From Squalus acanthias (Eukaryota): 64,000 nt of DNA. Positions within the stretch are counted from its first letter, which is position 1, and each line of letters begins with the position of its first letter. Shown in pieces: positions 1,572-58,156 of this stretch. The position numbers and the translations under genes are program-made. Below the pieces are notes generated by a model that worked only from the letters and a program-made list of their open reading frames with translations, did not search any database and was not told the DNA's origin. Where the stretch lies: the NCBI GenBank assembly GCA_030390025.1, contig CM059431.1:154816001-154880000 (forward strand), given 5' to 3'.

Positions 1572-1741
1572 AAAATGTAGGTAGTAAAATCTTACTAATG
1601 TTGGCGAGCTGCACGGATATCCAGCTGCACAGAGTTATCGTTTTCTACCGTCAGAGACTAGAACAGTCAATTGAAGAATACGTGGAGGCTGTTAGTCAGT
1701 CGCTTTTAGATGCAATCGTGTTTACTAAATCAGTTCATAAG
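1572..1741 (+). CDS. Exon, first half of CARD/death-fold-like module, copy A (NLR-like host gene)
   Basis: ttgacag|AA acceptor and AAG|gtatg donor; 170 bp, phase 1 to 0. Encodes (E)NVGSKILLMLASCTDIQLHRVIVFYRQRLEQSIEEYVEAVSQSLLDAIVFTKSVHK. Paralogous exons of identical length at 54904 and 57987. Confidence 0.8.
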
Positions 1742-2074
1742 GTATGCTACGTAGATTTTGGAATTATATAAAATTAAATGATTCATACAGTTGACTGTTT
1801 AGATTGACTGTATTCGGTGCAACCCAATCATAGAAACAATAATCTAAGATGTACTGGCATAACTTCAATCGGGACGTGAAATTGCATAAGGTGCCAATTT
1901 AAACAATATTTGAAGTGTTCTTCTGAGATATTTCTCTGGTAAATTAACTGTTCTGTAATTTTGAATGAGTGCATAGAATAATAATGGAACAGCATCTCAT
2001 GGTACATCCATTAGTTCCTTATGGCAGCGTCATTCGCCCAACACCAGTTAGCTTTTTATCCCAAATTGACAATG

Positions 2075-2370
2075 AACGACCATCGCTCACAAGTTCAGAA
2101 ATGGGGCTGTTCCCTGATGATTGCACAATGTTCAGCACTACTCGCAAATCTCAGATAATGAAGCAGTCCATGCCCACTTGAAGCAAGACCTGGACAACAT
2201 GAAGGTTTGAGCGGATAAGTGGCAAGTAACATTTGCGTTGCACAAGTGCCAGGCAATGACCATCTCAAAAATAAATGTCTAGTCGCTTCCGCTTGGCATT
2301 TAATGACATTACCATGGGTGAACCTGCCAACATACAAATGCTCGGTGTCACAATAAAACCGGCTTTGACA
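2075..2370 (+). mobile_element. LINE RT fragment (FADDCT-motif family)
   Basis: SEMGLFPDDCTMFS and WQVTFA motifs. Same family as 43235-46259; paralogous copy at about 63045-63320. Confidence 0.6.
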
Positions 2371-3299
2371 ATTCACTGCCAAATGGTCGTATTTCTGCAG
2401 GGATTGGGTTTACTCCAGCTTCTGAAAGCGGACACAGATTGCATCATATCAATTGAGCAATTATTCGAAATTCCAGGATTGAATACGCCAAGACGCCTCG
2501 AAATGAATAATTCAGTAAGACTCTACTAGCAGCGAAAGCATCACGTGTCATCAGCTAAACCCTAGTGGGAAACCTGGAGCTATATAAACTTTGCAATAAC
2601 AACATATTTCTAATCTCACTTGAAGAAATTAACTGACGTTTAGAAGCTATGCTTTTCGAATTTCTCCACGCTCAATGGCCGAGAGTTTCTGTCCATTCAC
2701 CATCAAAGCAGCCCTGTGTTTCCCGTAAACCATCCGATTGTTGTGAGCCATTGCCGCTTGCCCGGATTTCTAGAATGTTCTACAGAACTTATGCAAGTCG
2801 TTGTTTCCATTACTCTGCCTCTTTCTGCCTTCCAAAGAGGTTCCCTGTCACAGTTTTTACACCTAACTAAACATGTCCTTCATTTGCCACCTTACACAAT
2901 TTGCATTGTCTCACGTATCAGCCAGCAGTCACCAAATTCATCCAGTCTATGGGATATCCAACCTACTGTCTTCAGTGCATGCCCGATCAGGTCACGACCC
3001 TTATTGGCCCAATGCTCGGTGACATCACCGATACCGGGCTATCCTCAGGTATCATCCTGTTATGAAAAACTGCCATAATGAACCATGTGTTAAAAGAACC
3101 TCAGGACTTATTTGTGGTGTCCATATGCGCCCTTTTCCCAATAACTCCAACAGTTATATAACAAATTATTGGGAATAAAGCTGTTTAGCGGAAGGCACAG
3201 ATTGTCTGGGGATATGATAAAACTACATTGACAGCTACGTGGCTTATGTAAGGGCAGGTTTGAGAGCTAAGGTGACTTGTTGCCAAACATCGATGGTTA

Positions 3300-4290
3300 A
3301 TTGAATTTAAAACAAAAAATGGGAGGTATTATTAAAAGATTCAACGGCAGTACGGAACTCAGGACGGATATGAGGTATGATTCAGATTAGCAATCTATAC
3401 GGTTGGGTTACAGCATAATAAAGGAACTCTTTATATATGTGAGCTTAGTATCATGAATCAAATAGGGGGAAGGGATAGAAAAGATGTTTAGATACATTTT
3501 AGATAATTCAGCAATAGCAACAACGGAGTGATCGGTGATTTTAAATATCCAAAGAATAGAAGCAACGTAAGTGGGGAAGGGAGGCCATGGTGCCTGCAGC
3601 GTGTCCAGGACATTATACAGATGGATACTGTTTTAGAACAACAAGGAAGGAATCGGTATTGGATCTATTTCTAGAATGTGGACGGGTTAGTAGTTGAGGT
3701 AAGGGTAGTGCAACATTTAAGAAGAATCATATCGTTAGGTTTATTCTGAATTGTAAAAGGGAACGTGGCAATCAAAGCAATATATATTTTTCTGGAATAA
3801 CTCCAACTTCAACGAGACTAAACAACTAGCAAAGATATTTTGGGAATTGACCACAGAAAGCCGCGGGGAAGTAATCAGTCGCTTCCATTGAGTAGAAGAT
3901 TCCCGCAGAAGGTGTACAAATTACACAAGAATAATAGAGGTGCAGCACAAACTAGAATTGCTTGAACGTGCATAGAAAATGAACTAAAATGAGATTGTAA
4001 AATAAATGTAGGGTTGTAGAGCTGATTATATACAACAAGACAGGGAAACACAGATAATATAAAACCTACGTGAAAACGTTGAATATTAGAGACAATTATT
4101 ACACTACACAGGCATTAAAAGTGAAATAGTTACACAAAGGACAGAGCTCTTCAGAGATTAAAAAGACATGGTCCATAGAGAACATGATGGAGTGACTGAA
4201 AAGCTTATGCTACTGTTTCGATTAATGAAAGGGATACTTGGAATGAATGAAAGGCTCATTGAAGTAAATAGAATGTATATCGGGCGCGGC
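3300..4290 (+). mobile_element. Highly degenerate CR1 ORF2 (endonuclease region) remnant
   Basis: ggtgattttaaatatcc (GDF.YP) and gtattggatcta (VLDL) motifs; resembles the reverse complement of 38800-39300. Confidence 0.4.
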
Positions 4291-4903: not shown

Positions 4904-5102
4904 AGAATCATAACACTAGTTGAAAGTCACAACAGGAGTGACGCTTCCCGGCACATTTTCGATACCGTGCTGGAAAAGGGCGCTCGGGCAGAAAGAACAA
5001 TCTGGAAAATATTTCTTCAACTGCAGAACACAAAACCACGGCTAAAAGCGACATTTTCAGAGATGCAGAGCAAAGTTACAGAGCGACAAAGTCATTTGGA
5101 AG
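4904..5102 (+). CDS. Exon, second half of CARD/death-fold-like module, copy A
   Basis: tttttttag|AGA acceptor and GAAG|gtaggt donor; 199 bp, phase 0 to 1. Encodes RIITLVESHNRSDASRHIFDTVLEKGARAERTIWKIFLQLQNTKPRLKATFSEMQSKVTERQSHLE, in frame with the 1572-1741 exon. Paralog at 55768-55966. Confidence 0.8.
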
Positions 5103-5634
5103 GTAGGTGTTATCCAAATCCTTTGCAAAAAATATTGTGTATGTATGGCAATGACCTTATTTTAAGTTAAATTCTGTGGGGATGACATTCTACATGCGCT
5201 GGGAAATAAAACAGCCACGATCGCATTTGTCGACAGTTACAACAAACGCCGGACTTTCAGTACAATTCAAGGTTATTCGGACGCAGTGTACAATAGGCGA
5301 TCGATGCGATACCGCCATTGTTATGTCTGCGCGAAAAACCAGCTGTAGCGCATTTGCTGCTCGTTATGCGGTCGGTCCATGTTGCCTTCTATTGAGTTCA
5401 ATAGAACTGAATATAGGGCGATTTGAAGTTGGTGTGGTTTGTGTTCTGCTCTGGTCCAATAATGTGTTTACTTTTTTGAAGCCGAGGTTTGAACTTGCGC
5501 ATTACCGTTTCTCGTGGGTGTCAGAAAGCTCCACCGCATTATAAAAATAAGAAATTACCATATTTGGGAATGCAGTGGAGATTTCTTACCCCCATGAGAA
5601 TCAGTAATGCGCATGTTGAAACCTCCTCTTCTAT

Positions 5635-6469: not shown

Positions 6470-7390
6470 CTGGCAGGATGCTGATACCTTCAACACTGTG
6501 CCCACTGGCAGCATCCTGTTACAGTTTGAAATATCATACATACCTAGCCAAGTCCCGATATACTTCAAAACCCATACACAGCAGGCAACATGCTGATACA
6601 CTGATAAAACTCATGCTAACAGGATTCTGATAAACAGTGAATCCACGTACACATCAGGAGGGTTCCTGATAGGCTATGAAAGGCTGCACACATCTGGCCT
6701 AATGCTGCTACACTAACTCTCCGATATTTATCTAGCAGGATACCAGGATAGTTTATCCTCATAAACACCTGGCAGTTCTCCAATACACAATGAAACCCTT
6801 TACACACCTGGCAGGAATCGATACACGCTAAATATCAATAAACATCTGGCATGACCCTGAAGCACTGTGAATCCCCATACAAAAATGGAATTATCCCGAT
6901 ACATTTTGAACACTTGGCAGGATCATGGTACATCGGGGAACCCCATATACAGCGGGAAAGATTCTGGTACACTGTCAAACCCCATACATATCTCACGAGG
7001 TCCCAATACACTGTGAATCCCCATGCATATCTGGCAGGATCCTGATATACTGTGATTCCGCATACACACCGGGCGAGATCCTGATAAACTGTGAAACCCC
7101 ATACACACCTGAAGAAACCAAATATGCTGTGAATTAATGTACAAATCTGTCAGGATCATGATACATATAAAATCCATGCAAAACTAGAATAGTCCCGGTA
7201 AACTGTGAAACCGCATACACAGCTGGCAATGTTCCGGAACACTGAACCCCCATACGCATGTGGGAGGATCCTGATACATTGTGATAAATGACTCATAGCT
7301 GGCAGGATCCTGATATACTTTGAAATGCAATACGCACTTGTCAGAAGTCCGATACACTGTGAATCCGTATAAAAAAACTGTCAAGCCGAC
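6470..7390 (+). repeat. 39-bp minisatellite, block 1 (degenerate)
   Basis: Variants of the unit GATACACTGTGAAACCCCATACACACCTGGCAGGATCCT. Confidence 0.85.
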
Positions 7391-7399
7391 AATATAATA

Positions 7400-7813: not shown

Positions 7814-9482
7814 TAAAAACGTGAAATGACAGTGCAGGCTAAGTATAGGATATGTGATATGTGGAACTTTCATGACAGTAAGACTGCCCCGAAATGAAAA
7901 ATCTGCAGAAAATGTCTGTTTCTTTAGACACTCCAGCTTAGATTCTTTGAGCTGGAGTGCGAGATAGCGAGACTGCGATACTTAAAGAAGGGGGAGGAAT
8001 TTCTGGACAGTTTTCTTGTGAGTAATCCACAGGTGCAGAAAGCGGAGAATGTCATTGCCATTAGAGTAGGGGTAACCAAGGTAATATAGTGGAGGAGGTC
8101 CACAAGACACTGGTCCTCTCCAATGGACACAATTTATTTGATATCTGTGAGGATAAGAAGAAAAACTGCTGGGACGAAATTTACAATCCTGACCTTAGCA
8201 CCGTGGAGCAGAGGGCTGTTAAAATCGTGGCAGGTGCGGAGCAGATTCGAAGCGTAGTAGTTAAAAGAGATTCAATAATTAGTGGGATAGATAGCAACAT
8301 ATTCATCCAGCGTAGAGTGTCCCAAAGGTTATGTTTTCTACATGATGACAGAGCAAAGGACATCTCATTGTGACAGGAAAGTAATTTTGAATGGGTGGGG
8401 GGAGATCTTGTTGTCGTGTTCCATGTCGTGAACAGTGACAGGGGGAAGAAAATGGTAAAGCTCCTGTGGAAGGGGTATCAGAAGTTAGGAGCTAACTTAT
8501 AAAGCAGCGCTTCAAGGGTTGTAATGCCAGGGTTACAAACAGATCAGGAACGTGAACACGTGGCTAAAGGAGTGGCGTTTGAAGAGCGGGTTCCATTTTA
8601 TGGGACACCAGCACCAATAATGGGACAGGAAGAAGTGTGTGTCATTGGGATGCGCTGCCTCTGAACCGGGCTGGGACCAAGTTCCTAGCGGAAAGTATAA
8701 ATAGGCTGATAAAAAGGATTGTAAACTAATAAATGGAGGGGGCAGTAAGAGTCTCAGCCAGGAGCAAAAATAAAAACGATAGTTTCAATTTTTTTAAAGA
8801 AGGTATAAGTGCTGTTCAAGTCACAAACAGTACTATAAATACTACGGGTGAAGAGAATATAAAATAACTAAAGCAGTTACAGCAGGAGTGATAAATAAGT
8901 AATGTGTCAAGTTAAACGGTGTGAGAAAAGAAATAGCAGGACAGGTTAGGGTCTCTTTGACAAAAAAGAGCTTTATATACTAACTGACGAAGTATAATAA
9001 ATAAACTGAGTGAATTAGAAACTTTAAGGAGATGGCATGGTGGCCATTACTGAGACATGGCTTTAAACTGGTCATGATTAGTGGTGAAATACTCCGGGTC
9101 ATAAGGTTTTTTATAAAAGGCTTGAGAAACGGGAAGAGGAGGATGGGTAGTCTTTTTCATTAAATATACTATGACAACATTAGCAAGAGAGGACATAGGT
9201 AAGTGAAAGCAATCGGCAGAAACTATGGTTAGAAATTAAGAATAAGTGAGGATTTAAAACTGTCTACAGGCCGCTTGATACCAGCAATGAAGCGGCAGAA
9301 TGTATTAATTCAGAGATTAGAGAGACTTGTAGCAACATGCAGAGTTGTGCTAATGCGATACTTTAATTATCATGTAGATTGGGTAGAGCAGAATAACTCA
9401 AGACAGAAAGGTATTGAATTTCTTGAGTGCATTCAAGTTAATTTTCTGAAGCAATGTGCTCTAGAACCAACATGTGGGCATT

Positions 9483-10225
9483 GGCCCAGAAATTGATCTC
9501 GCTCTGTTCCCGCGGGGGTAAGCCTTTCCCGCGATGTCTCACCTCGCTTATGCTTTTTCTGATCCAGCTCGCACGAAATTGATGTTCCAGACATCAGCTG
9601 TGCTGGGCTTGCGTATCCCAGCGGCGTAGTTAATTCGTGCGAGCTGTGGGATCACGTGACTCAGTTAGAGCCAATGGCAGCACACCATCTTCCATTCATA
9701 AGTCTCACAGCATGGCTGAGAGACTTATGAATCTTACACCCCCCCAAAATAACAGCTAAACCTCAATTAAATTTAAAAAAAAACCCATCACATTAATAAA
9801 ATAAGTATAGTTAATTAAATTAACCATTTTAAATAAAAAATTAAATTTTTGAAAAAATTTAAAATCTTTTAAAAGTTATAAAAATAAACTTACCTGTCTT
9901 TAAAGTCTATAAAAAAGATATACCTGTAAAAAAAAATTCAAAAAAATACTTAATTCACTTCTTACCTTCTTAAAAGCGGGTCTTACTCCTCCTTTTTACA
10001 TTTCCAAAATCTTCAGTACTTACCTGCGCGTCCAAAGCATGAAGTGCACAGCGTGCGCGCAGCCTGTAGCGCGCACGCGATGCACTCCGGCCCCGCCCCC
10101 TTTTCGGAAGAGCAATTGCCGGTTTTCAGCGCATGCGCAGGGCATGCAGAAAACCGGCAATTGGAGTGGGAATACGCGAGAGTATGCAGTGCGTACTCTC
10201 GCGTCCCGGGATCAATTTTCGGCCC
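9483..10225 (+). mobile_element. PIF/Harbinger-type MITE, ~743 bp
   Basis: TIRs GGCCCAGAAATTGATC ... GATCAATTTTCGGCCC; flanks ATT/AAT. Highly similar to 14759-15500 (inverted) and 35515-36255. Confidence 0.9.
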
Positions 10226-10903
10226 AATATTAAATTTAGTAACAAGTAAAGAGACAGACTTCGTTATTAATCTAACAGTAAGGGGACATTTATCTAACAG
10301 TGATCATAATATGATAGAATTCAATGTGAGGTTTGAAAAGGAGAAACTTAAACCAGTTGCTAAGATTTTAGATGTTGGTACAGCCAACTACTTGCGGGGG
10401 ATATCAATATTTGTTTTTTTTATAATTATAATGGGCCAGAAATTGATCTGGCTCCGTTCCCGCGGGTGTAAGGAGCCGGCGCGGTAATACATACCGCGTC
10501 TGCCGTTTCGTCTTTTCCACGGAGAAAATTCATCTTCTGGCTGATTGAGTGCAGGGCAGCGTATGACGTCACACTGCCCTGCAGCGCAGCGTGCGCGTTG
10601 CATCGCGTGCGATTAGGAGTGAAGACACGCCCATTAAGGTCTCTTTTCCATAGGCCACGCCCCCGATTTTTTTCTCCACTGAAACCATTGTACAGCTGCT
10701 GAAGACACAGTTTTCTCACTGTTTTAGGTGGAATTTGCAGTAAGTAGGATTTAAGTGCATGGTTTTGTAAACTTTTAAAGATTTTTAGTATAATTTGAGT
10801 AATGTTAAACATTTGCAAAGAGATTTAAAGTAATTTAAATAGTTTTAAAAGCACAGAAATAATTTTTTTCAGAGATTTAACTGTTTATAATCAGCAAACG
10901 AAA

Positions 10904-13305: not shown

Positions 13306-14758
13306 TCACAAAATACATGAATTTTCCGACGCACGCGCAGAATCACCAGCCCACGCGATTATTCGCATATCCATGAAACTGACCAGACATGAAGTGCCGG
13401 TTTTCAGCGCATGCGCAGTGCATGCAGAAAACCGGCAATTGAAGAGGGAATACGCGAGTGTACGCAGTGCGTACTCTCGCGCACCAGGATGAATTTTTGG
13501 GCCAATATAAGTGAAAGGGTACTCAAGGTTAATGTGGGCCCTTTAAACATAGATGCGGGTAAATTTACAAATGACAATAGGGAAATGGCAGACTTCTTGA
13601 ATAATTACTTTGTATCAAGCTTCACAGTGGAGGAAGAAGATAATGTAAATCACTTTCCAGGAAAAAAACTAAAAAAACTGAATCAAGGACTGAAACTCTC
13701 TAAAGTTAGCGTAAGCAAAAAAACAGTACAGAAAAATATAATGGCACTAAAGACTAACAGATCCCCATGGAATGATTGTGTGCACCCCAAGGTTTAAAGG
13801 AATTAGGCGAAGAAATTGCAGATCATCTCTCGATTCAGTAATTGCCCATTTATATTGGAAAATTGCAAATGTTATTAACGAAAGTTGAGAGGGAGAAACC
13901 AGGAAATTATAGACCTGCTAACGGACTTTATTGGAATCTATAATGAAGGACAGAGTGATTGTATTTGATTTTTGAACAACATTTACACGATTCTGTTCAA
14001 GAGCTGCTGACGGTATCTCAAGCTTCGGCATTTATTCATTTTTATTTTACGGTCATTAATGAAGAAGCATTGAATGTGAACCACATTATATCTTCTGCTT
14101 ATGATATCTCAAAGTCATGTCAAAGAAACACGTTCCTCAAAATTGTGAACGGTCGCCTTTATTGAAAGTGTTTGTGGACATGATGTAGGAATTGAGGAGG
14201 CGTATACTTAGAGAAATTTGAGCTGATTAGGGCAAAAATGCATTTGGAAAGGGTAGGTTATGTCTAACCAACCTAATTGAATGTTTTGAGGAACTAACTA
14301 AAGTCGTAGATAGGGGATCCACTTTGGAACAAAAAGCAGATCTCAGCATTTTTGAACTGGGGAAAACATTGAACAGCGGAGATCAGAGGGATTAAGCGTC
14401 CATGTACAAAGATCACTGAAATGTAGCTGTCGGGATTAAAATTAATCAGAAATCTAATACAATAGAATAAAGGTCGAGGACATAAAGGAGGAAATGTTGA
14501 TACCGCAATCCAAAGCCCTGTTAAGTCCACATCTAGAGTACGGTGTACATTTCTCTGCACCGCACATTAGAAAGGATATATTGACCTTGGAAGGAGCGCA
14601 GCGTAGATTGACCAGAATGTTACCAGGGCGCCAAAGGTTTGATTATGTGGCGAGATTGAATGAAATAGTTTTGAAATTCTTGGAAAATAGAAGGACAAGC
14701 GTTGTTTTGATTGACGTTTTTAGGATTTTGTAAGGAATTGCTGCGATAGAGAGATATC

Positions 14759-15500
14759 GGCCCAGAAATTGAACCCGCGACGCGAGAGTACGCACTGCGT
14801 ACTCTCGCGTATTCCCACTCCAATTGCCGGTTTTCTGCATGCCCTGCGCATGCGCTGAAAACCGGCAATTGCTCTTTTGAAAAGGGGGCGGTTCCTCGGT
14901 GCATCGCGTGCGCGCTACAGGCTGCGCGCACGCTGTGCACTTCATGCTTTGGACGCGCAGGTAAGTACTGAAGATTTTAGAAATGTAAAAAGGAGGAGTA
15001 AGACCCACTTTTAAGAAGGTAAGTAGTGAATTAAGTATTTTTTTGAATTTTTTTTAACAGGTATATCTTTTTTAGAGACTTTAAAGACAGGTAAGTTTAT
15101 TTTTATAACTTTTTAAAAGATTTTACATTTTTTCAAAAATGTAATTTTTTATTTAAAATGTTTAATTTAATTAACTATACTTATTTTATTAATGTAATGT
15201 TTTTTTTTAAATTTAATTGAGGTTTAGCTGTTATTTTGGGGGGGTGTAAGATTCATAGATTCCACAGCACGTTTGTGAAACTTATGAATGGAAGATGGTG
15301 TGCTGCCATTGGCTCTAACTGAGTCACGTGATCCCACAGCTCGCACGAATTCACTACGCCGCTGGGATACGCAAGCACTGCCCAGCTGATGTCTGGAAGA
15401 TCAAGTTCGTGCGAGCTGGATCTGAAAATGCACAAGCGAGGTGAGAGATCGCGGGGAAGCCTTATCCCCGCGGGAACAGCGCGAGATCAATTTCTTGGCC
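14759..15500 (-). mobile_element. PIF/Harbinger-type MITE, 742 bp, inverted relative to 9483-10225
   Basis: TIRs GGCCCAGAAATTGA ... TCAATTTCTTGGCC with perfect 3-bp TSD ATC. Confidence 0.9.
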
Positions 15501-16244
15501 ATCGTTCAGCTCTTGGAGGAGCCTAAGGTAAGTGGACATAACGTTAACATCAGATCCAGCCCGTTCAGGAATTAAGTTAGGAAATAACCCTTCAACCAAA
15601 GGATGATCGAATTCTGTACTCTCCCTCCCACATAAAAAAACTATGGCTGCTAGCTCGAAAATAATTTTATATCTGTGATTGCTTGGTTTTTTGCCAGCCA
15701 TGAGTATTAATAGTTATGGAGCCATTGCGGATGGTTACAGTTAGGATAAACACCAGCCATGATGTCATTGAATGTCGGCGCAGGCTCGAAGGGCTGAAAG
15801 GCCTACTCCTCTCCCTATGTTCCTAAAGTGACGGTAAATAGACGGACAGAATTTCACATAGAAGGAGGCAATTCGACCCAAACTGTCTGTACCGGTTCTT
15901 TGAAAGAGCTAGCCAATTAGTCCAGTTAACCTCCTAATAGAAGGCAACGAGGGTGTACTTTCTCCCAACAAATTAGCGCTTGAGAAAGAAACTATGGGAA
16001 TGTCGGAAGCAATTTCGAGCGGCTTTCCGCTCTTGTTGCGGACCGGTTGAGGTTGTATACGCAAGCCCCCTTGTTGACCTTCTCAGCCCATTCCTCTCGC
16101 TGTTCAATAGTTTGTATTTAATTTTCTGGCCGTCCACTTGATCTTGGAGTTAAGGAGAACTAAGATCTTTCCGGCTGTGGGTATCGAATCAGCCGCCGAT
16201 GTAAACAGTCAGCGTAACATCCCTGATTTAAACATCTGTTCAAA

Positions 16245-17860
16245 TCCAGATACATTGCAAAACCTCATACATGTGTGTAAGGCTCCCGATTGAATGAAAC
16301 TCCATACAGAACCGGCAGGATCCTGATACACTGTGAATGCACATACACACTTCGCATGATCCCGATACAATGTTAAACACCATACACACTTAACATGATC
16401 CCGATACAATATTAAACACCATACACACCTGGCTGGATCCCGATACACTGTTAAACCCCTTATCCACCTGGGAAGATTCCGATACACTGTGAAACCTCAT
16501 GCACACCTGGTACGATCCCAATACAATGTTAAACCGCATACACAACTGGCAGGATTCCGATACAATGTTAACCCCCATACACAACTGGTAGGATCCCAGT
16601 AGAATTTTATACCCCATACACACATGGCAGGCTCCCTATAAACTGCGAAACCCCAACACACCTTGTATGATCACAATTCAATATTAAACCCCATATACAC
16701 CAAGGAGGATCCTGATACACTGTGAAACCCCATACACACCTGGCAGCATTCCGATAAAATATGAAACCCCAGACATTCCTGGCAGGATCCCGATACAATG
16801 TTAAACCCCATACACACCTTGCAGGATCCTGATACACTGTGAAACCCCATACACACCTGGCAGGATCATGATACACTGTGAAACCCCATACACACCTGGC
16901 AGGAACCTGATACACTGTGAAACCCCATACACACCTGGCAGGATCATGATACACTGTGGAACCCCATACACAACTGGCAGGATCATGATACACAGTGAAA
17001 TCCCATACACACCTGGCAGGATTCTGATACACTGTGAATCCCCATACATACCTGGCAGGATCCCGATACAATGCTAAACCCCAGACACACCTGGCAGGAT
17101 CCCGAGACAATATAAAACCCCATACATACCTTGCAGGATCCCGATACCCTGTGAAACACCAAAGATAACTGACAGGATCGCGATAAAATGTTAATCCCCA
17201 TACACACCTGGCAGTATTCCGATACAATGTTAAATCCCATACACACCTGGCAGGATCCTGATACACTGTGAAACCCCACAGATACCTGGCAGGATGCCGA
17301 TGCAACTTGAAACACCATAAAAAGTTGGCAGAATCCCGATACACTGTGAAACCCATACACACATGGCAGGAACCTGATAGAATGAAACCCCACTCACACT
17401 TGGATCGATCCTGACACACTGTTAAACCCCAGACACACCTGGCAATATCCTGATACACTGTGACGCCCCTGACACACGTGGCAGTATCCTGATACACTGT
17501 GACGACGGAGACACACCAGGCAGTATCCTGATACACTGTGACGCCCCAGACACACCTGGCAGGATCATAATACACTGTGAAGCCACACACATACTAGGAA
17601 GGATCCTGATACACCATGAAGCTCCATACAAACCTGGAAAGATCCCAATATATTTTGCAACCAAGTACACGCCTGGCAGCATCCCAATATACAGTGGAAC
17701 CGCAAAAATAAATGGTAGGATCACAATACACTTAGAAACAGCATATATATTTCGCAGAATACCAATAAGCTCTGAAAATGGAAGAATGTAGACACCCTGT
17801 GAATCAATGAACACAAATGGGAGGATCCTGATACGCTGTGAATCCCCATAAGCACCTGGC
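16245..17860 (+). repeat. 39-bp minisatellite, block 2 (largest and most homogeneous)
   Basis: Period 39 (GATACACTGTG at 16831 and 16870); 13-aa periodicity in the six-frame ORFs. Confidence 0.95.
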
Positions 17861-19150: not shown

Positions 19151-19281
19151 GATTCTGAAACACTTTTAATATCCATATACATCTTTTAGGAAGCAGATAC
19201 ACTATGAGATCCCATACACTCCTGGTAGAAACTTGATACACTGTGAATCGCAAAAACGCCTGACAATATCGTGATGCACTC
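19150..19281 (+). repeat. 39-bp minisatellite, block 3
   Basis: cccatacactcctggtag...gatacactgtgaa units. Confidence 0.7.
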
Positions 19282-20709: not shown

Positions 20710-20970
20710 GAATCTAGGAGCAGGAGTAGGCCATTCGGCCCGTCGAGCCTGCTCCACCATTCAATACGATCATGGCTGATCATCCAAATCCAGTACCCTG
20801 TCCCTGCTTTAATCCCCACAGTACACATATCCCACCCTACCCCCGTAACCCCACGTATTTAATTCCCCCTAACATATCCCATCCTATCCCCATAACCCCA
20901 CATATTTAATACCCACCTAACACTAAGGCTCAATTTATCATAGCCAAATCAACCTAACCCGCACATTTTT
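20710..20970 (-). mobile_element. 5'-truncated V-SINE/HE1-like SINE with CR1-type 3' tail, inserted in ORF2
   Basis: Minus strand has a gtgcgggttaggttgatttggctatgataaattg...ccttagtgt core and a CR1-like tail ggagcaggctcgacgggccgaatggcctactcctgctcctagattcta. Flanked by a GAATA duplication. Confidence 0.65.
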
Positions 20971-23896: not shown

Positions 23897-24111
23897 TCTA
23901 TGTAATTAATTAAAAATTTATTATTTACCCTTCAGTTAATTTATGCCAGCAGTCTCCGCTACACCACAGATACCCGAGAAACTATAAACTATGGAATTGA
24001 AGTTTTATATAAAAAAAAGAGAAATACTCACCAACCAATCACTTACCTGCTTTCTGGTGACGTCACACTTCGATTATTTTTTACCTCTCTCCTGCTCTCG
24101 GCTTGGTGAAA

Positions 24112-33343: not shown

Positions 33344-33419
33344 ACTATTCTCGGAAACTATCCTGGATGCACTCTATGAACTTCTCCTCAAGGCTACCAT
33401 GGCCAATTTCTTTCAGCTT

Positions 33420-49039: not shown

Positions 49040-49600
49040 AAAAAGAAGCTTCTCCCTGTGGAGTCACCATGACTGAGAATCCGGAAGAGAACTCCCGGGG
49101 AACAAAAGTTTCGCTCGACCGCACTCATCGTTGTCACGAACTGGACAATGTAAACACAAAGCCTGATGATCGAACTGAACATTTGCACAAGGGACCTGAC
49201 ACAGAAACGGCTGTCATTCCAGAAGGATTGTTTCAAGATACAGCCACTTTATTGACTAACAATGAGAGCCATAAAGAAAAGGACAATGTGGAAAATATCC
49301 CTGCAATAACTGACAGGAGCACCGCGGCAGCTGGTCACAGGGTTGAATGTCACAAGAAAGAATTGGAAGAAAGTGTTCCCACTGGGACCGAATCTCACAC
49401 CAATATATCTGTAAAGAACCGTCCTGTCACTATCAAGCCTGAAATATTTCATCGTAACCAAGAGGAAAATGCTCCTAGGGAAACTGTGCTCAGCACGGAT
49501 ACTTACGATGTGAGCCCCACACACATATTGAATGAAGATCGAAATCCACGGCTGCAAGAAAAAGCAGCCAGCGGGAATGACAAAAGATTATACACATCCG
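49040..49600 (+). CDS. Acidic low-complexity exon, copy 1 (may contain the start codon at 49069)
   Basis: ctttgctttag|AA acceptor and TCCG|gtgagt donor; 561 bp open, phase 1-1; ACCATG at 49069. Confidence 0.7.
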
Positions 49601-50690
49601 GTGAGTTTGCTCTTTCTGTTGCACTGATATAACCGCAATTATTTAAATTCAATCCAGTAAACCTCAATATTGGGTGGTTCTCAGGCCTACCCTTTTTGGT
49701 GCAGTGCTTGTTGCCGGCTGTAATTGTGGCGTCGTGTGGTGATGTAAAATGGGCGACAGCGAATCAAAAGTAGCAGCGAATGTAAACAATGGAAGTCAAA
49801 ATCGGGAGAGATGTAAAAACGGCTGCCCAATCAAATCAGCATATCTAAATATATCTCACAATAAAAAGTCACAATTACTCACACCTCCCGGTACCCAGTT
49901 CGCGCCAGCCAGCACAAAACAATTTCTAGGCCATTGTCGATTATTTCTTTAAAACAAATATCGTTACAGATATTTAATCGATCGATTTGCATCATTCCTC
50001 CATGTCTGCCTGAAGATAATCATGTCCAATCTGTAAACCCCTAAAATAACGTTCCAGGTCACAGGTCTTATTTGTCAGACATTTTTCATTAATCCAAGTA
50101 AAGCTCTTTTGTGTTTTACGTCTCGTATTTCCATTATTAACATTTTACATTGCTTTTCTCCCAACATTGGAATTAGCGTTATGAACAGTTAATTTATATT
50201 TGCTCTGGAATAACTGAAGCTTTGCTTCAATCAGTAAGGTGATTCTCTGAGACCTACGACATAAACCCCTGCATCTGGTTGAGATATTCCCCCTCCATTC
50301 TATCTATAATGCCACTATGACCTGTTTAGTTGCAGACCAGCAGTTCTGTAAAGCACCCGCCCACTTTTGAACGGTTTCCCATTGTTTAAAAAAACGAAAA
50401 CCGTGATCCTCTACACCTAACTCCAAACACGCGTTGGCCTGCCTAATTATTCCGGGTTGTCTTCATTTCCACCTGGCACTGGTAATGATACACTTAATCG
50501 TTCTTCATATTGCCATAATTTATTATGATGGAGATCAATCAATATTGGATCATAATAAGGATTGTATAAATAAGGAACGCGTGAATTTCTTGAAATATTT
50601 ATTTAAATGTGTCTGGCCCAGTTACAGATATTAAGGTCAGGTCTACCAATATTATTGCTGAATATCTGAATCTTTGTTTTGTAAATGAAG

Positions 50691-51233
50691 CTTCACCCTA
50701 TCGAGACACCATGGCTGAGAATCCGGAAGAGAACTCCTGGGGAACAAAAGATTCGCTCGATCGTTGTGACAAACTGGACGATGTAAACACCAAGCCCGAT
50801 GAACGAAGTGAACATTGGCACAAGGGACCAGTCTTAGAGACGTATGTCATTCCAGAAGGAATGTTTCCAGATACAGTCACTTTATTGACTAACAACGAGA
50901 GTCATAAAGAAAAGGAAGAAGTGGAGAGTATCCCTGCAGTAACTGACAGGAGCACCGCGACAGCTGATGACATTGATACATGTCAGAAAAAAGAAATGGA
51001 AGAAAGTGTTCCCGCTGGGACCGAATCTCTCGTCAATATATCTGTAAAGAACAGTCCTGTCAGTATCAAGCCTGAAATATTTCATCGTAATCAAGAGGAA
51101 AATGCTCCCAGGGAAACTCTGCTCAGCACGGATACTCACGGCACGAGCCCCACACACAAATTGCACGAAGATCGAAATCCACGGCTGCAAGAAAAAGAAG
51201 CCAGCGTTGATGACATACGTTTATACACATCCG
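50691..51233 (+). CDS. Acidic low-complexity exon, copy 2
   Basis: Open paralog of 49040-49600 with donor TCCG|gtgagt. The equivalent AG acceptor is lost; the nearest in-frame AG is at 50689-50690. ACCATGG at 50711. Confidence 0.6.
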
Positions 51234-51699
51234 GTGAGTTTACTCTTTTTGTTGAACTGATACAACAACAATTATTTACATTCAATCCAGTAAACCTCAA
51301 TATTGGGTGGGTCTCAGACCTACCCTTTTTGGCGCAGGGGTCGTTCCAGGCTGTAATTTTGAAGTCGTGTGAACTTGTAAAATGGGCGATAGCGAATGGA
51401 AAGTAGTAGCGAATGTAAATGGAAGTCAAAATCGGCAGAGATGTAAAAACGCCTGCCCAATCAAATCAGCACATTTAAATTTATCTCACAATTAGAAAGC
51501 CACAATTACAAACTCTGCCCCGTTTCCGGTTCGCGGAAACCGGCACGAGAACAATTCTAGGCCAGGGTAGATACATTAACTGAATGTACTTTAAGCCTTC
51601 ACCCTGCAGTGTGCTTATGATGATGCATCGACTGCATAGATTAACCTGCCGTGTATTAGATTACACCAGGGTACAGTTTAGTAGATCCATAAATCGAAT

Positions 51700-51790
51700 A
51701 AGTAGATTGACAGATGTAGATATTGATGAGAGTTAGACTGATAGACAGATAGACAGCGAAATAGGCAGACAGATAGATACATAGATATAT
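51700..51790 (+). repeat. Degenerate (GATA/GACA)n microsatellite
   Basis: gatagacagatagacag...agatagatacatagat. Confidence 0.6.
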
Positions 51791-51933
51791 TCAGAATGAT
51801 TAATTATTATTTGACTTTCCCTCTTCGTTTGATTACTAATTTCTTGCAGTGCAAAATATTTCTGTGTGCCTCGTCTACATAATGTCGTTTATTGCAGCTA
51901 TGCGATATTGTTTCTTCCACTTGTACTTTATAG

Positions 51934-52103
51934 TGGATGATATTTCTGGAGTTGTTCCAACTGTATCGACAGACGCTGACACTCAGGAATACAAAGACGC
52001 AGAATTGTACCGGCATAGAATACTTGAAGCTGATGAAGAATCTGTGACTGGTGTCAGGGCAAATCTACATCATGATAATATAATTACTCCGATAGATTCT
52101 GAG
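51934..52103 (+). CDS. Linker exon
   Basis: ttgtactttatag|TG acceptor and GAG|gtattt donor; 170 bp, phase 1 to 0. Encodes (V)DDISGVVPTVSTDADTQEYKDAELYRHRILEADEESVTGVRANLHHDNIITPIDSE. Confidence 0.65.
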
Positions 52104-53236
52104 GTATTTTTGACGTAAACGGAAATGGACCTATGTTACCCTACGGTATTTAAGACTTGACTTCTATGATTTATTTATAAGAAGTAGGTTTTACGCTTTC
52201 TCAGCTTTTCCTTGCTGAAGTAGGCGAGTTGCACTGCGGTATGGTTACACGGGTCACCGCTCCGAAATTTTATTTGAGGAAAAAGTAGGATTGCCGAGAA
52301 CCTCTTCCTTACCTAATTTCCTCTCGGGCGCGTATCAAACGCTAATTTTGACAGATTTGATTTTACCCCGAATCTAACCCAGAGGCCAGTCGGTGAACTG
52401 GATCCAGCAGTGCTCTGCAAGAGCAAAGACTTATTTTGCAAGAATTACGCTACATCCTGTTGGCCGAGTAACTAAGTAATCCCTTGGTCATGCCGCTGCC
52501 TCCAGGCCCAGCAGTTAGAATGCATCTGCTTCCACACCTCTAAACCCAACTCCTACAATGCATTTATAGCATCGCTTCCAAGCAGAAACTCGCATTGTAT
52601 CTGCACCATCGGCTCTTATCACTAACTGATATATTGCATTTTAATAGTCACTCCATCCGTTAAAACATTCTATTTCGCCGCCACTTTCCGACTTGCTTCC
52701 GGTTCTGTCATTCTTGTCTCTGTAACTTGGGGCCATGCGTCTCTTAGTTCGAGATTTAGTCTGAATGATTGGATTGGAAATGTACCTATGCTGCCAGCTT
52801 TGCTATGTCTATGGGATGTACATATATTGATTATGCTTCAACACGCCTGCTCTTGTTTGTGCAGCGATTCCAGCTCAGCTCGGCTCAGAGCTGCCTCATC
52901 AGTCGTGTCTGAATTTTACTTTACAAACTCATTTATCCCGATTACACAAGCACTTGCTTTCTTAAAGATAAAATCAGATTATGGGATCACCTCGGCTCCA
53001 TCTGTAATTAATTCACCTTATCAAACAACTTTATACCTTTTGTTGTTTTCGGGTTTTGTGATTATGATGGGCATCACGATATATTTCTTCCGTAACTAGC
53101 GTACCTCCGTCCTGGGGAATCACAAATAACATTGTCGGTTGCTGCACTGGCTGGGGAAATTTGTCTCTCATACAGTTCAGTAATCGGAAAGTCAGAGCGA
53201 TTGTATCTAATCTAATCATATTCTTACTATAAACAG

Positions 53237-53363
53237 AACCAACAAGAAAATGCTCCAACAGAACCATTGGTCAGCACGGATACTTACTGTGACATCAGCC
53301 TCCCACACACAGTAAATGAAGATCTAGGAGCCGGCAGATATGGTATAAGCACACACACATCGG
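53237..53363 (+). CDS. Linker exon, homologous to the 3' part of the acidic exons
   Basis: aaacag|AAC acceptor and TCGG|gtaag donor; 127 bp, phase 0 to 1. NQQENAPTEPLVSTDTYCDISLPHTVNEDLGAGRYGISTHTS aligns with NQEENAPRETVLSTDTYDVSPTHILNED...YTS. Confidence 0.75.
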
Positions 53364-53839
53364 GTAAGATTACTCTTACACTCGAACTGATATAGCCGCC
53401 AGTGTTTGTATGCAACCCAGTAAACCTCAGTTTTCAGTCTCTTCTCATTCAGTTGTGGATGCCGACTGATGTGAGACTGTTAACCCATCAACAACACCAA
53501 CAACAACGTGTATTTATACAGCGCGTTTAACGTAGTAAAACGTCCCATGGCATTCACAGGGATGTTAACTGTACCAGTGAGGTAAATTATAAGCTCAATG
53601 TTACAGAATGTTAAGAAATCACGTCTTGTCCCTCCGTCAAATTTTGCACTGAATCTTAGTTCAACCATGGCTATCCACTTGCTTTCTCCGATAAACTGTG
53701 ACGCCTGAAGAGTTGGTTAACTCGAGTCATCTAACAGACGGTCGATAAAGGTACCTCTGCAGTCCGCCACCAAATGAAAATTTTAAGAAACAAAACGTAC
53801 ATTTATTTAGTGCCAGTAACTTCGGTAGTAGTATGGAGA

Positions 53840-54440
53840 ATTGGATAGGTACTCACATTGACAGGATCTGATTAGTGGTGTCCCGCAGGGATCTGACTTG
53901 CAACCTCAACTATTCACATTATTTATTAACAACTTAGTTGATTGCATAGAAAGTCCTGCATCCAAATTTACTGATTAAACAAAGTTAGGCATCAGTGTAG
54001 CTGAAAGCAAAAATTGAGAAGAGATTAAGGGAATGTGCAAAATTGTGGCAAATGGATTTCAATGTTCACAAATGTGAGATCATCCTCTTCGGACCAAGAA
54101 AGGAGAGAACAGTTGCAGGGAAAAAGCTAGAATCCATTATTAAGGACGTGGTAACAGGGCACGTAGAAAATAATATTAGGATTGTGCTGAGTCAACACGG
54201 ATTTGTAAAAGGGAAATCGTGTTTTACAAATCTGTTAGAGTTTTTTGAGTTTGTAACTAGTAAAATAGTTAATGGGGAACCAGTGGTTGTGGTGCATTTG
54301 GATTTTCAGTAGACATTCGAAGTGGTGCCACGCAAAAGGTTATTAAACAAAATTAGGCTCATGGGATTGGGGGTAATATACTAGCATGGATAGAGGATTG
54401 GTTAACAGACAGAAAACAGAGAGTATGAATAAACGGAAAA
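53840..54440 (+). mobile_element. Two juxtaposed CR1 RT fragments
   Basis: GVPQGS/WQMDFN segment followed by an upstream SQHGFVKGKSC...LDFQ segment, so the order is scrambled. Confidence 0.7.
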
Positions 54441-54903
54441 TACGGCCAATAACTTCTTATACCATACTGACCGTTTGTGAAAGCCTCCTCCTCATCTACC
54501 AATTCCTCTCTGGTCTCTCGCATTTTTTCTCTGTATTCTTCTTCGCATTCCTTCTATTACACTCCTAACCCTACTCTCCCTTTGCTGTGGTAAACAGTGT
54601 ATGTTTTTTCTGCTCCGGAATGCAGCTGCAAATTCAGCTAAACTGGCTGGATCTTCATTCCTATAGCCTCCATTTCACTACTTCTTGCTTACTGTAAAAA
54701 GTCACCAAATGTTGCAAGTTCTGGGCCAATTCTCTTAACTCTACCAAAAATAGGCAGCGTTAATGCTGATCCCTCCTATGCGCAGCGCCACAGGCCCTGC
54801 TACTGCACTAAATACACACTGTTGCTATAGCAGTCAGTTCAGAGTATTCATTGTGCTATAGAGGACACTATGTATTAATCTTTCCTCATTTCCACCCTGA
54901 CAG

Positions 54904-55073
54904 AACTTTTTGATACTAAAATCTTACTAATCTTGGCGAGCTACACTGATATCCAGCTACGCAGCATCATCGAGTGCTACGGTCAGAGACTAGAACATTC
55001 AATTGAAGAATTCGTGGAGGACGTCAGTCATTCGCTCTTGGAAGCAAACGTGTTTACTGAAACAGATCATAAG
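54904..55073 (+). CDS. Exon, first half of CARD-like module, copy B
   Basis: ctgacag|AA acceptor and AAG|gtatg donor; 170 bp. Encodes (E)LFDTKILLILASYTDIQLRSIIECYGQRLEHSIEEFVEDVSHSLLEANVFTETDHK. Confidence 0.85.
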
Positions 55074-55092
55074 GTATGCTACATATATATTG

Positions 55093-55400
55093 ATGTGGAG
55101 ATGCCGATGTTGGACTGTGGTGGACTAATGTGAGAAGTCGCACAACACCAGGATATAGTCCAACAGCTTTATTTGAAATCACAAGCTTTCGGAGCGCTGC
55201 TCCTTCGTCAGGTGAAGTGAAGAGATGCATATAGGCACAGCATATATAGTCAGAGAACACTGCCAGATGATTACAGTTAATCTTACCAACTGCCCTTTAT
55301 CACACCTCGGCAGAGAGATAATCAAGGCAATCAAAGGTGTGGATGGTGTCGAAACAGGTCAGTCAGGAAAACATTACATCAAAGACAATGTGGAAGATGC
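55093..55400 (-). mobile_element. Penelope-like terminal-repeat fragment
   Basis: Minus strand cacctgacgaaggagcagcgctccgaaagcttgtgatttcaaataaagctgttggactata...ggtgttgtg, typical of Penelope termini. Confidence 0.65.
55178..55216 (-). ncRNA. Minimal type-I hammerhead ribozyme motif
   Basis: UCAC-CUGACGA-A-GGAGC agc GCUCC-GAAA-GC-UU-GUGA: conserved core, 5-bp stem II, palindromic AAGCUU stem III, stem I UCAC/GUGA. Confidence 0.7.
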
Positions 55401-55767
55401 TGGGGTCTGCATGGAAAACAAAAAACTTTTCTAACCTCTTCCAGCTCAACCCCCCGTGATCTCTGCGCTCGTCCAATTCTGGTCTTTTGCGCATCTCCGA
55501 TTTTCTGCATGCCACCATTGGCAGCAGTGCCTTGAGCTGCCTCGGCCCTAAGCTCTGGAATTCACTCACTAATGCTCACCGGCTCTCTGCCATACTCTCC
55601 TAATTTAAGGTGCTGCTAAAAACTTACCTAGTTGACAAAGATTTTGCTCAACTGATTGTGAGCTTTGCTGTGCATTCCTCTTATAAAGAGAGGGAGAAAG
55701 AAAACAAATGTTTCAAAGCTGATTTTGCAAATTACTTGGTTCAATATGATTGCAATATATTTTTTAG

Positions 55768-55966
55768 GAAATCAGAAAATGTTCTGAAAGTCAGCGCAGA
55801 AATGATGCCTCCCAACTCATTTTCCATACCGTTCTGGAAAAGGGAGCTCGGGGCGGGAGAACAATGTGGAACATATTTCTTCAACTGCAGAATACCAATC
55901 CCGAGCTGAAAGCAACTTTGTTAGAGATACAGAACAGAGGTACAGGTGTAGAAAACTTTCTAGAAG
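55768..55966 (+). CDS. Exon, second half of CARD-like module, copy B
   Basis: ttttttag|GAA acceptor and GAAG|gtaggt donor; 199 bp. Encodes EIRKCSESQRRNDASQLIFHTVLEKGARGGRTMWNIFLQLQNTNPELKATLLEIQNRGTGVENFLE. Confidence 0.85.
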
Positions 55967-56244
55967 GTAGGTGATGACCAAATCTAATTGCAAAATATCT
56001 TGTTCATTATTTGTGTGGAGTAACTTATTTTAAGTTAATGCCCGTGAGAATGACATTCTAAATGGGCGGGGACACCAAACAGGCGGAATCGTATTTGCCG
56101 ACAGTTACAACACACGCCCGATATTCAGCGCAATTCAAGTTTATTCGGGCGCAGCATATATCGCTTGTGATGGTTGCGATACCGCTTGTGTTTTGTCCTC
56201 GCCTAAAAGCGGCCGGTATTACAGCTGCTGCCCGTTGTGCGCTC

Positions 56245-56882
56245 GGCCCGATATTCCCTTCCGTGGATTTCAAATAACTGCATAGGCTGCACTGTGCCCG
56301 CCAAGAGACGGCAATCAGTGAAATCTCTCAATCAGGGAACCTGATTAACTCTTCGGCTCTTCCAATATAATTGCGTTCTTAAATTCCGCACTAAAAGTTC
56401 GACTCAAAGGGATTGGATCTAACTGGGTTTCAACAGTCTACTGACTTCTAAACAAAAGTTATTGGCCTGAAAATCTAAATTTAATTTTGTGCAGTGTCAA
56501 TTTTATTCATTTTAATAAACATTAACATTTTTAAGAAAATGTAATTGTTTCATAAGTTTTTTCCTCCTTATTTCTGGTTTGAATTTTCCCCATGTGCCAG
56601 CCCCAATGTTTGTTTTGTTCCGATAACATTTTTGATGTTTAAGAGCTTACTCACTTCCTTTTTCGCTGTCTGTGAGAATTCGGCGCTTTGATTATCTGCT
56701 TAGGCAGCATGTTGACGTCACAGCAGCTTGCACTCGGGGATCCGCCATGTTCCTTCGTTGATAAAATTGAGCTTCGGAAAACCTGAACTTCTCCACACAG
56801 AGATTGCGTGATCTTTCTTTGAAGCTTACTTTCGGGCCACAGCAAACACCTTTGCTTCACCGCTGATCGCAAATATCCGGCC
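56245..56882. mobile_element. Possible old Harbinger-type MITE
   Basis: GGCCCGATATT ... AATATCCGGCC inverted ends and an AT-rich core; no TSD seen. Confidence 0.4.
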
Positions 56883-57986
56883 ATTCTTTATTTAATAGTG
56901 GTATCTCTCAGGCCTTTCTACTATAATCCCTCTACATTTTAGATCCAGAAACATTCAATTATGAATCCGACCAGCTATTGTCATGTTTCAGGAATGGTAT
57001 TAGAGATTCTCTTAATATTTTAATTAGATATCAATACATATTTTCCCAATGGTGTGTTCTTGTAATTGGTGTATTGGTATCTATAAAATCTATTGTGATT
57101 ACCTTTAGCTTCACAGTATTTCAATCTCTCAATTCTGTATCCCATTTTAGATTTCCAAGAAAGGAGAGAGCTTCCATTTATTATTTCATTCTTTAAATGT
57201 CTGTACATTATTTATCAGCTCTTTAGGAAAACAAGCAAAAGTCAGGACTATTTCTAATTGCTCAGCAGTATCTGGTGAATCCAAGCAATAAATTTCAACC
57301 TAGCGTCTCAGATCACCGTCCGCAACTATTACATGTTAATTTTCTGGATATATGTTAACATATAAATATTTGCTCCTGCTTTATCCAGGCTTTTCGGAGA
57401 TTTAGACTCAATTGCTCAAACGACCATTGTGCACTACCTGTTAGAAACTCCAGAGCTCGACTGCTTCAATTCCAAAGTTCACCCTCATTTTCAATTATCC
57501 GTAATCCCCTTCATCAGTGACCTACATTCACTTGCTATCCCAGACAATTTGTGAAATAATCCTACTCATCCACATTTCCCATTACGGTCTCGAGCGTCTT
57601 AGCTCTACAGTCTCCTGCAGATGCCCTCCCATAACTCTTGTCCATCCTCTCACTTTGCTGTGGTCCCCAGATTATTGGTTCTCCTGCTCCGGACACCAAT
57701 AAAGTCTTCAGCACCACTGGAAGGATTCCCGTTGCGATGGGCCTCCACATTTACTTTCTACTTACTTTAAACAACCTCCACAAGTTGCAAGATCTAGGTC
57801 GTTTCTCTTAACTCTACAAAAAAGAGGCAGCTTAAATTCTGAATTCCTGCTCTGTGAGGCGACACTGGCCGTCTGACTGCTTGAAAGGCTCTAAAGAAAC
57901 GCTGCTGCTCGAAAAGTTAGTTCAAAATATTCATTGTGTGGAAGCACGAACTGAATTTCAACCTTTTCCCATTTACACCTTGACAG

Positions 57987-58156
57987 GAAATTCAGATACT
58001 AAAATATTACTAATGTTGGCGAGCTGCACGGATATCCAACTGGGAAGAATTATCGGTTTCTCCCGTCAGAGATTGGAACAGTCAATTGAAGATTTCGTGG
58101 AAGCTGTTAGTCAGTCGCTCTTAAATGCCAACGTGTTTACTGAAACAGATCATGAG
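57987..58156 (+). CDS. Exon, first half of CARD-like module, copy C
   Basis: ttgacag|GA acceptor and GAG|gtatg donor; 170 bp. Encodes (G)NSDTKILLMLASCTDIQLGRIIGFSRQRLEQSIEDFVEAVSQSLLNANVFTETDHE; phase matches the 55966 donor. Confidence 0.85.

Follow-up and report, generated by a model that had tools for sequence, protein, structure and literature searches.

A tandemly duplicated two-exon module, predicted to encode a CARD, in a probably dead NLR gene of the shark Squalus acanthias

Introduction

To our knowledge, vertebrate NLRs carry one or two CARDs. Both CARD-bearing NLRs and expansions of the NLR family in sharks are already known, as set out in parts of PMC8455134, and oligomers of NOD1 and NOD2 seed a CARD filament of RIP2, as described in a portion of PMC13249360. 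Here we analyze a stretch of 64,000 nucleotides from the shark Squalus acanthias (the window; C7:154816001-154880000, where C7 is contig CM059431.1 of the 3.7-Gb genome; coordinates given with C7 are genomic, and small numbers are positions within the window). We think it probable that the window contains the first half of a shark NLR gene carrying tandem duplicates of a two-exon module that is predicted to encode a CARD, and that this particular copy is likely dead. A literature search found no description of multi-CARD arrays, most subscription journals and supplements lying outside its reach; RefSeq models with three to five modules exist as automatic annotation.

Results

Paralogous exon pairs in the window

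A first-pass annotation, made from the sequence alone, had recognized three paralogous exons of 170 bp and two of 199 bp. All five lie on the forward strand, are free of stops, and have AG/GT ends. Exon 1 of the module (A1, 1572..1741; B1, 54904..55073; C1, 57987..58156) runs from phase 1 to phase 0 and, judging from the fold model of a homologue, would encode an extra N-terminal helix and the first half of a CARD; exon 2 (A2, 4904..5102; B2, 55768..55966) runs from phase 0 to phase 1 and would encode the second half plus a short linker. A pair amounts to 369 nt, or the 123 codons annotated, with phases 1-0-1. The second exon of module C (C2) lies intact on the same strand 2.6 kb beyond the window end (C7:154882627-154882825), and the C1-C2 intron (58157..64000, forward strand) runs past that end. 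The paralogy proposed for the flanking introns also holds: 840-1570 and 57207-57986 show 26% differences over 700 aligned bases, 5103-5400 and 55967-56280 show 24% over 295, and 1742-2760 matches 58157-63720 in three collinear pieces, with E values of the flank matches down to 1e-117, far beyond chance.

Ahead of modules B and C lies an acidic region of four exons on the forward strand. L1 (49040..49600; 561 bp, phase 1 to 1) has an ATG near its start that is kept in 10 of 11 L1-type copies, and is likely the first coding exon of an L1-B-C-NACHT unit. L2 (50691..51233) is a tandem duplicate of L1, with 85% DNA identity across 1.9 kb; its acceptor paralogous to that of L1 is mutated, an in-frame AAG acceptor lies 9 nt downstream (50691), and the exon may be skipped. 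L3 (51934..52103; 170 bp, phase 1 to 0) is a degenerate, acidified module exon 1, matching the hidden Markov model (HMM) of the module family at E 1.7e-6 in a single comparison and with a pairwise score that 1-6 of 2,000 shuffles matched, and L4 (53237..53363; 127 bp, phase 0 to 1) is homologous to the 3' part of L1. Spliced by script, with C2 taken from beyond the window, L1-L2-L3-L4-B1-B2-C1-C2 yields 712 codons without a stop. The single frame annotated from 49040 to 58156, opening with an acidic linker of some 460 residues, therefore stands, on condition that L2 uses its AAG back-up acceptor; the linker encoded by L1-L4 is 466 residues long and 20% D+E. That picture of a linker followed by modules is right as to acidity but incomplete, as L3 within the linker is itself a degenerate module exon. 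L3/L4 pairs are repeated in other cluster genes, four times at C7:155427734-155442087 and three times at C7:155859449-155867653, which together with the origin of L3 indicates that the acidic linker consists in part of decayed cassette.

Module A lies 44 kb before L1 and is preceded by decayed L1/L4-like exons of its own; its frame is compatible with that of L1, and the two might be joined in one transcript. A further module (Z) and an orphan exon (Y) accompany module A, upstream of the window. Nine nucleotides into exon 1 (57996 in C1) lies a second, in-frame acceptor; it is an AG in 66 of 72 exon-1 copies, and all five exon-1 copies without a canonical AG have the back-up CAG.

The module is a predicted CARD shared with ordinary shark NLRs

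The window module is almost certainly the CARD module of an NLR gene. The fold was modelled for a Mustelus module about 50% identical to modules A, B, and C, using a 16-row alignment, so the fold of the window module follows from that of its homologue. AlphaFold (pLDDT 83) gives a six-helix bundle preceded by an additional helix at the N terminus, and residues 14-115 superpose on CARDs with a root-mean-square deviation (rmsd) of about 2 over 82-96 residues in VIA-align. The best match is the SP100 CARD (Z 11.7, rmsd 2.1 over 96 residues), the NOD1 and caspase-1 CARDs reach Z 10.9, and CARD entries of SP100, NOD1, caspase-1, ARC, ASC, and NLRC4 span Z 10.3-11.7; the first 34 rows also include one de novo design and one entry with no molecule named in its title. 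The best death folds other than CARDs are a death domain at Z 7.6, a death effector domain at Z 6.5, and a pyrin domain (PYD) at Z 6.2, the last being that of AIM2, which appears only at rank 50; the module thus ranks with CARDs rather than with the PYD found at the N terminus of NLRPs. All of the first 13 Foldseek rows are CARD-containing entries, none of them at E 0.001. By sequence, the Pfam CARD family (PF00619) scores 40.4 bits on the Scyliorhinus torazame protein XP_072354261.1 (P0001), against a cut-off of 23.9, also exceeds the cut-off on P0053, and reaches E 0.1 or better in 4 of 16 homologous modules; the best natural CARD match of the sequence profile is that of caspase-1 (E 0.018). 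The top ESM Atlas clusters are CARDs (scores 0.80-0.84), which we take as a lead only. The death-fold assignment of the first-pass annotation is thus borne out on the Mustelus model. Weak Pfam matches to annexin on single window exons were rejected, and a single-sequence fold of a tandem-module protein (pLDDT 39.5) was not used.

A word-based protein search with exon B2 gave no match, and shark and ray RefSeq models were retrieved with a NACHT query and a module profile. The module HMM matches the same unit ahead of NACHT in these models, in agreement with its earlier assignment to the N terminus of chondrichthyan NACHT-LRR proteins. At E 0.001 the profile finds 144 representatives, most with one module; two of the profile matches, P0115 and P0154, are repeat-driven and false. 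Tandem modules number five in S. torazame (with NACHT-LRR), three in Mustelus asterias (XP_078087540.1, P0002), two and a half in Hemitrygon, and two each in Hypanus, Chiloscyllium, Stegostoma, and Cetorhinus. The notion of a lineage-specific multi-CARD protein must accordingly be given up, and since, in sequence, the tandems of Hemitrygon and Hypanus look like members of the ordinary family, multiplication likely occurred more than once. The Callorhinchus model P0015 carries at least the second half of the module; the text available of a 2026 preprint counts 0 CARD-containing NLRs among 98 in Callorhinchus. In Chiloscyllium and Stegostoma, P0023/P0024, P0055, and P0058 have one or two modules at the C terminus, possibly through read-through between adjacent genes, and in P0024 the modules come after the LRRs and an L1-like acidic region.

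The 1-0-1 exon pair also precedes NACHT in ordinary one-module genes of S. acanthias, on contigs C691 and C72. In ordinary one-CARD shark NLRs the two exons measure about 167 and 172 bp with the same phases; in the window clade the exon 2 donor is placed 27 nt farther downstream. It follows that the symmetric cassette is ancestral and that tandem duplication produced the arrays, not the exon shuffling into a new gene that had been supposed. As the module starts and ends in phase 1, any copy number preserves the frame.

Sister genes carry from 1 to 17 modules

Across the genome, 434 first-look candidates for exon 2 were found and 150 scored, the close ones mostly in C7:153.7-159.6 Mb. We examined about 1.4 Mb of DNA, part of this 6-Mb cluster. 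Its genes carry from 1 to 17 modules, in keeping with the suggestion that symmetric phases permit multiplication, followed by either NACHT-LRR or a membrane-anchor exon. The largest, at C7:154573320-154716450, 100-240 kb upstream of the window, combines 17 modules, an open NACHT, and LRR exons in one frame. All 34 of its module exons are stop-free, of exact length, and have GT donors, and 33 have a canonical AG; modules and NACHT together read through 2,660 codons without a stop when one exon uses the in-frame CAG 9 nt downstream. In its last exon the stop appears to come a few codons too soon, and its 5' end is not delimited. A near-identical duplicate at C7:153.72-153.80 Mb has 12 complete modules and two stops. 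An array at 155.52 Mb combines eight stop-free modules with an open NACHT, arrays of six and three complete modules have a broken NACHT, and arrays of nine (158.8 Mb) and five complete modules are followed by the membrane-anchor exon. This exon (129 bp, phase 1 to 1, encoding a membrane-spanning helix) is found at C7:158833016 and 11 other places in C7:154.0-159.3 Mb.

Over all DNA examined, clean copies make up 62 of the 72 first exons and 67 of the 72 second exons; matches under 55% identity or below 46 residues in length are not counted. Among the 33 NACHT matches listed at 60% identity or more, 9 are open (at least 580 residues without stops); in-frame NACHT exons occur in sisters at C7:154.71, 155.52, 157.22, and 155.84 Mb and on contig C1065. 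This mix of open and broken genes fits birth-and-death evolution.

Between the 17-module gene and the window gene, a heavily decayed, partly inverted NACHT exon lies at C7:154744389-154745978. Exon-1 copies at C7:157254891 and 157299260 are inverted relative to their own gene, each with a stop, and represent a duplicated local inversion.

The NACHT exon of the window gene is broken

The first-pass annotation had proposed a scan of downstream sequence for a NACHT exon, and one is found 11 kb past the window end, on the forward strand at C7:154891101-154893555. Compared with the intact paralog at C7:157.22 Mb, to which it is 91% and 87% identical on either side of the break, it lacks 1 nt, carries some 730 bp of inserted repeat DNA with a 9-bp duplication, and has lost the GT of its donor. 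The spliced frame of the window gene ends 136 residues into this exon, after Walker A, and the gene thus has no in-frame NACHT downstream of its effector domain; three short, stop-free LRR-region exons follow on the same strand at C7:154895271-154896146. With its NACHT exon broken in three ways, the window copy is very probably non-functional as a full NLR, and is likely a recently dead pseudogene in a birth-and-death cluster; the working receptor or adaptor that had been pictured here is thus not sustained.

The locus could instead be alive as a truncated CARD-only product, an acidic region with two to four CARDs, serving as a decoy or dominant-negative regulator in the manner of mammalian CARD-only proteins. 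The intact L1, L3, L4, B, and C exons speak for such a product, as do the confinement of the three clear lesions to NACHT and the existence in the same cluster of NACHT-less arrays that end in a membrane-anchor exon. No such anchor was found in the window, however, either after module A, where it was sought, or elsewhere, one copy lying 89 kb beyond it. Three lesions would fall by chance within the same 1.75 kb of about 3.9 kb with a probability of ~0.09, and the L2 acceptor is hit too. A stop upstream of later exons leads to nonsense-mediated decay, which is expected here with intact LRR exons downstream of the stop. Moreover, the first 55 kb of the window are collinear at 80-92% with C7:155.617-155.672 Mb, and this paralog has decayed in both modules and NACHT (one module exon with a stop, another with a frameshift, and two stops in NACHT). 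We therefore consider a living CARD-only product very unlikely and retain the pseudogene reading.

A long-branch NACHT clade has an altered Walker B motif

A FastTree phylogeny was reconstructed from 70 NACHT regions, 13 from this genome and 57 from database proteins aligning over >430 residues, with no reference NLRC3 included. It contains a long-branch clade of 20 shark and ray NACHTs (local support 1.0), to which all NACHT genes in the tree with at least three modules belong. Among solved structures, NLRP3 is nearest to the NACHT of the window clade (E 2e-41); entry 5irm, which we take to be NOD2, scores far lower, at E 9e-22. The position aligned to NLRP3 G303 is D or E in all 20 clade members, whereas G is kept in 42 of 50 sequences outside the clade. 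At the position aligned to E306, 18 of the 20 have Q, R, K, or H and 2 keep E; outside the clade the glutamate is present in 49 of 50, one of the rows being a gap. The extended Walker B pattern hhhhDGxDE is thus absent from the clade, as in the NACHT exon at L057:6651-8372. Walker A mostly ends in serine in clade members from sharks and rays alike. Compared with NLRP3, the 17-module gene keeps the Walker A lysine, the sensor-1 arginine, and the winged-helix histidine, all of which are also present in the broken exon of the window gene, and the C-terminal LRRs form a short region of three exons. As the clade sequences are related, the Walker B change counts as about one evolutionary event, and as many one-module genes belong to the clade, it is independent of the arrays.

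In human NLRP3, E306Q hydrolyzes ATP at 0.22 of the wild-type rate and is hyperactive, while G303E hydrolyzes at 0.12 and is inactive in cells (from the part of PMC9633759 covering these mutants); G303D and E306K are gain-of-function (from a part of PMC11876074). By analogy with these mutants, the altered Walker B of the clade would slow ATP hydrolysis, which could either prime or silence the receptor.

A paralog transcript splices tandem modules as predicted

RNA evidence comes from contigs of three runs (X1, X2, and X3) of one study with the same species label, which we guessed to be RNA. X1 and X2 yield a contig of some 1.2 kb that joins L1 to L3, then to an L4-type exon and to module exons 1 and 2, the B1-B2-type intron being removed at GT..AG, and a 383-nt contig that reads exon 2, exon 1, exon 2. 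In the paralog RNA a single L1-type exon is spliced straight to L3, and the second acceptor of exon 1, 9 nt downstream of the first, appears to be used. In X3, NACHT is joined to two LRR exons (LRRa and LRRb) in a contig that derives from a paralog, not from the window copy. Junction reads had been proposed as a check, and such joints were seen in part: the exon 1-exon 2 and exon 2-exon 1 joints are spliced in a paralog, but none is assigned to the window copy. Splicing thus follows the prediction in a relative that has at least two tandem modules, an observation that does not extend to expression of the window copy or of long arrays. No RNA match is listed for the NACHT exon of the 17-module gene, and no module-to-NACHT joint is listed among the contigs; neither is evidence of absence.

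Constraint on the modules and the role of the arrays

By analogy with NLRC4, NOD1/2, and RIG-I, the intact sisters may signal as CARD-NACHT-LRR receptors, in which NACHT oligomerization would bring the CARDs together and so nucleate a CARD filament of caspase-1, ASC, or RIPK2. A chain bearing many CARDs could then be a ready-made seed and lower the firing threshold. We hold this seed mechanism for the intact sisters tentatively, at a little short of even.

Selection was estimated from the ratio of nonsynonymous to synonymous substitution rates (dN/dS, or omega), taking the copies as given and with no gene-conversion term. A value near 1 among modules A, B, and C had been named beforehand as a mark of decay; the values observed, 0.52-0.72, lie below 1, but the six-module set that holds them is not significantly below 1 (twice the log-likelihood difference, 2dL, 1.0). 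Over 70 modules omega is 0.69 (2dL 21.5 against 1), with 0.61 in the CARD core. Modules of one gene differ by about 8% at nonsynonymous sites. The exons of A, B, and C show no length change, compared with 56 indels in 2,204 aligned flanking bases (three non-independent pairs). The reading frame is thus strongly kept and the residues weakly kept. A split of omega by residue type, with 1.15 at hydrophobic sites, was set aside because codon frequencies probably distort it.

Several observations weigh against our reading as a whole. The fold was predicted for the Mustelus homologue and not for the window's own spliced module, Z values of 11-12 can also be attained by helical bundles through their common arrangement, and PF00619 matches none of the five single module exons of the window, each of which is half a domain. 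The RNA contigs share 82-94% identity with the window (8-20 letters differ per 104-164 in the X1/X2 pieces), come from a single study, and hold at most two modules in a row, and the source locus of the main contig was not found in the regions examined or by exact motif across the genome. As for NACHT, G303E abolished NLRP3 specks and E306Q increased them (from the same part of PMC9633759), opposite outcomes that leave the sign of the clade's Walker B effect unfixed. Finally, omega is 0.69 (2dL 4.9) in a 15-module array alone and 0.75, not significant, in the membrane-anchored arrays, and a site model assigns an omega of 0.32 to half of the codons and of 1 to the other half. With amino acid constraint this weak, the arrays may be tolerated products of slippage.

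Such products would be neutral or nearly neutral outcomes of unequal crossing-over, with only the NACHT-adjacent CARD mattering and the extras tolerated, skipped, or residing in decaying genes. The within-array omega of 0.69-0.75 and the neutral half of the sites favor this explanation, as does the lack of support for positive selection (M2a versus M1a, 2dL 4.3, 2 degrees of freedom). So do the many broken genes in the cluster, its 50-kb blocks of 80-95% identity, transposable elements included, and the resemblance of L3/L4 pairs to earlier modules decayed into acidic spacer. It sits less well with the unbroken set of 34 exons in the 17-module gene, the overall omega below 1, the recurrence of arrays in other sharks and rays, and the splicing of tandem modules in a paralog transcript. 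We regard neutral arrays as possible, if somewhat doubtful; they are compatible with the pseudogene call and compete only with the seed mechanism.

The array of an intact sister might also be an integrated bait or sponge that captures pathogen effectors or host CARD adaptors, with NACHT as a pseudo-ATPase scaffold and the proteins acting as sensors or dampeners. The long-branch clade with its changed Walker B, the nonsynonymous differences between modules of one gene, and a fast-evolving extra N-terminal helix (omega 1.7 on 13 codons, 2dL 4.1, uncorrected) would suit this role. Baits, however, usually show site-level positive selection, which is unsupported here, and the retained Walker A lysine, sensor-1 arginine, and winged-helix histidine argue against a mere scaffold. 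A bait or sponge thus appears improbable.

Other features of the window

At 24112-25022 lies a minisatellite with a 76-bp unit, repeated about 12 times at 97-98% identity. Related degenerate short-period tandem arrays lie at 6470-7370, 16240-17860, 27680-28300, and 33420-33730 and are present in the paralogous blocks too. Numerous reverse-transcriptase fragments resembling long interspersed nuclear elements are found on both strands at 19280-23900, 25000-35500, and 59890-63050, and 750-bp dispersed repeats at 9479-10230, 14752-15505, and 35510-36260.

Discussion

The window copy is itself minor, likely one of many dead members, and the main interest lies in the clade that it exposes. Closely related NACHT-LRR bodies with 1-17 CARDs offer a natural series for relating CARD valency to the threshold of filament nucleation, and the clade-wide Walker B change is a natural test of the role of ATP hydrolysis in NLRs. 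For shark inflammasomes, a predicted CARD mostly missed by Pfam bears on the count of no CARD-bearing NLRs in Callorhinchus given in the available text of the 2026 preprint. At its most far-reaching, the combination of a native Walker B of the hyperactive-NLRP3 type with up to 17 CARDs would make this shark and ray clade a pre-primed, inflammasome-type sensor that supplies the seed of its filament itself and whose threshold is tuned by the copy number of an exon pair, which we consider conceivable but unlikely.

The positions changed in the clade are those altered in NLRP3 G303D/E and E306K/Q. The NLRP3 variants, however, are disease-associated or engineered single mutants of a human protein, whereas the shark change is a double one, fixed across the clade and read from sequence. 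Like the sensors NLRC4, NLRP1, and CARD8 and the CARD of caspase-1, the module is predicted to have a six-helix CARD (Z 9.7-10.9 in VIA-align), but these sensors have a single CARD and the shark module adds an N-terminal helix. The proposed seeding of an adaptor filament by more than one CARD in cis would resemble that of NOD2 (two CARDs-NACHT-LRR) and of RIG-I and MDA5, as described in parts of PMC13249360 and PMC8455134. In NOD2 and RIG-I/MDA5 the number is fixed at two, whereas in the shark genes it ranges from 1 to 17 and has been multiplied recently and repeatedly.

Teleosts, too, have proteins with many CARDs: eight in CAL8349490.1 of Arctogadus (P0134), and six with a FIIND in XP_061898864.1 of Entelurus (P0169). 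Unlike in the shark arrays, no NACHT was detected in these two proteins; their weak match to the profile points to another CARD lineage, and the teleost multiplication is likely independent. Within cartilaginous fish, the NLRP-related NLR family of the whale shark is likewise an expansion near the NLRPs (PMC8455134, in part), and the NACHT family of the window may be the same expansion; the available text of PMC8455134, unlike our analysis, describes no N-terminal domains, CARD arrays, or Walker B changes. The closest counterparts are XP_072354261.1 and XP_078087540.1, both annotated as 'NACHT, LRR and PYD domains-containing protein 3-like', although the module of XP_078087540.1 is CARD-like and not a PYD. 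They share with the window gene the module itself, at about 50% identity to A, B, and C, its presence in tandem copies (five and three, respectively), a NACHT that falls in the same clade and has its altered Walker B, and a short LRR region. They differ in that both are uncharacterized automatic models, whereas the Squalus sisters extend to 8-17 copies and the copy in the window is broken.

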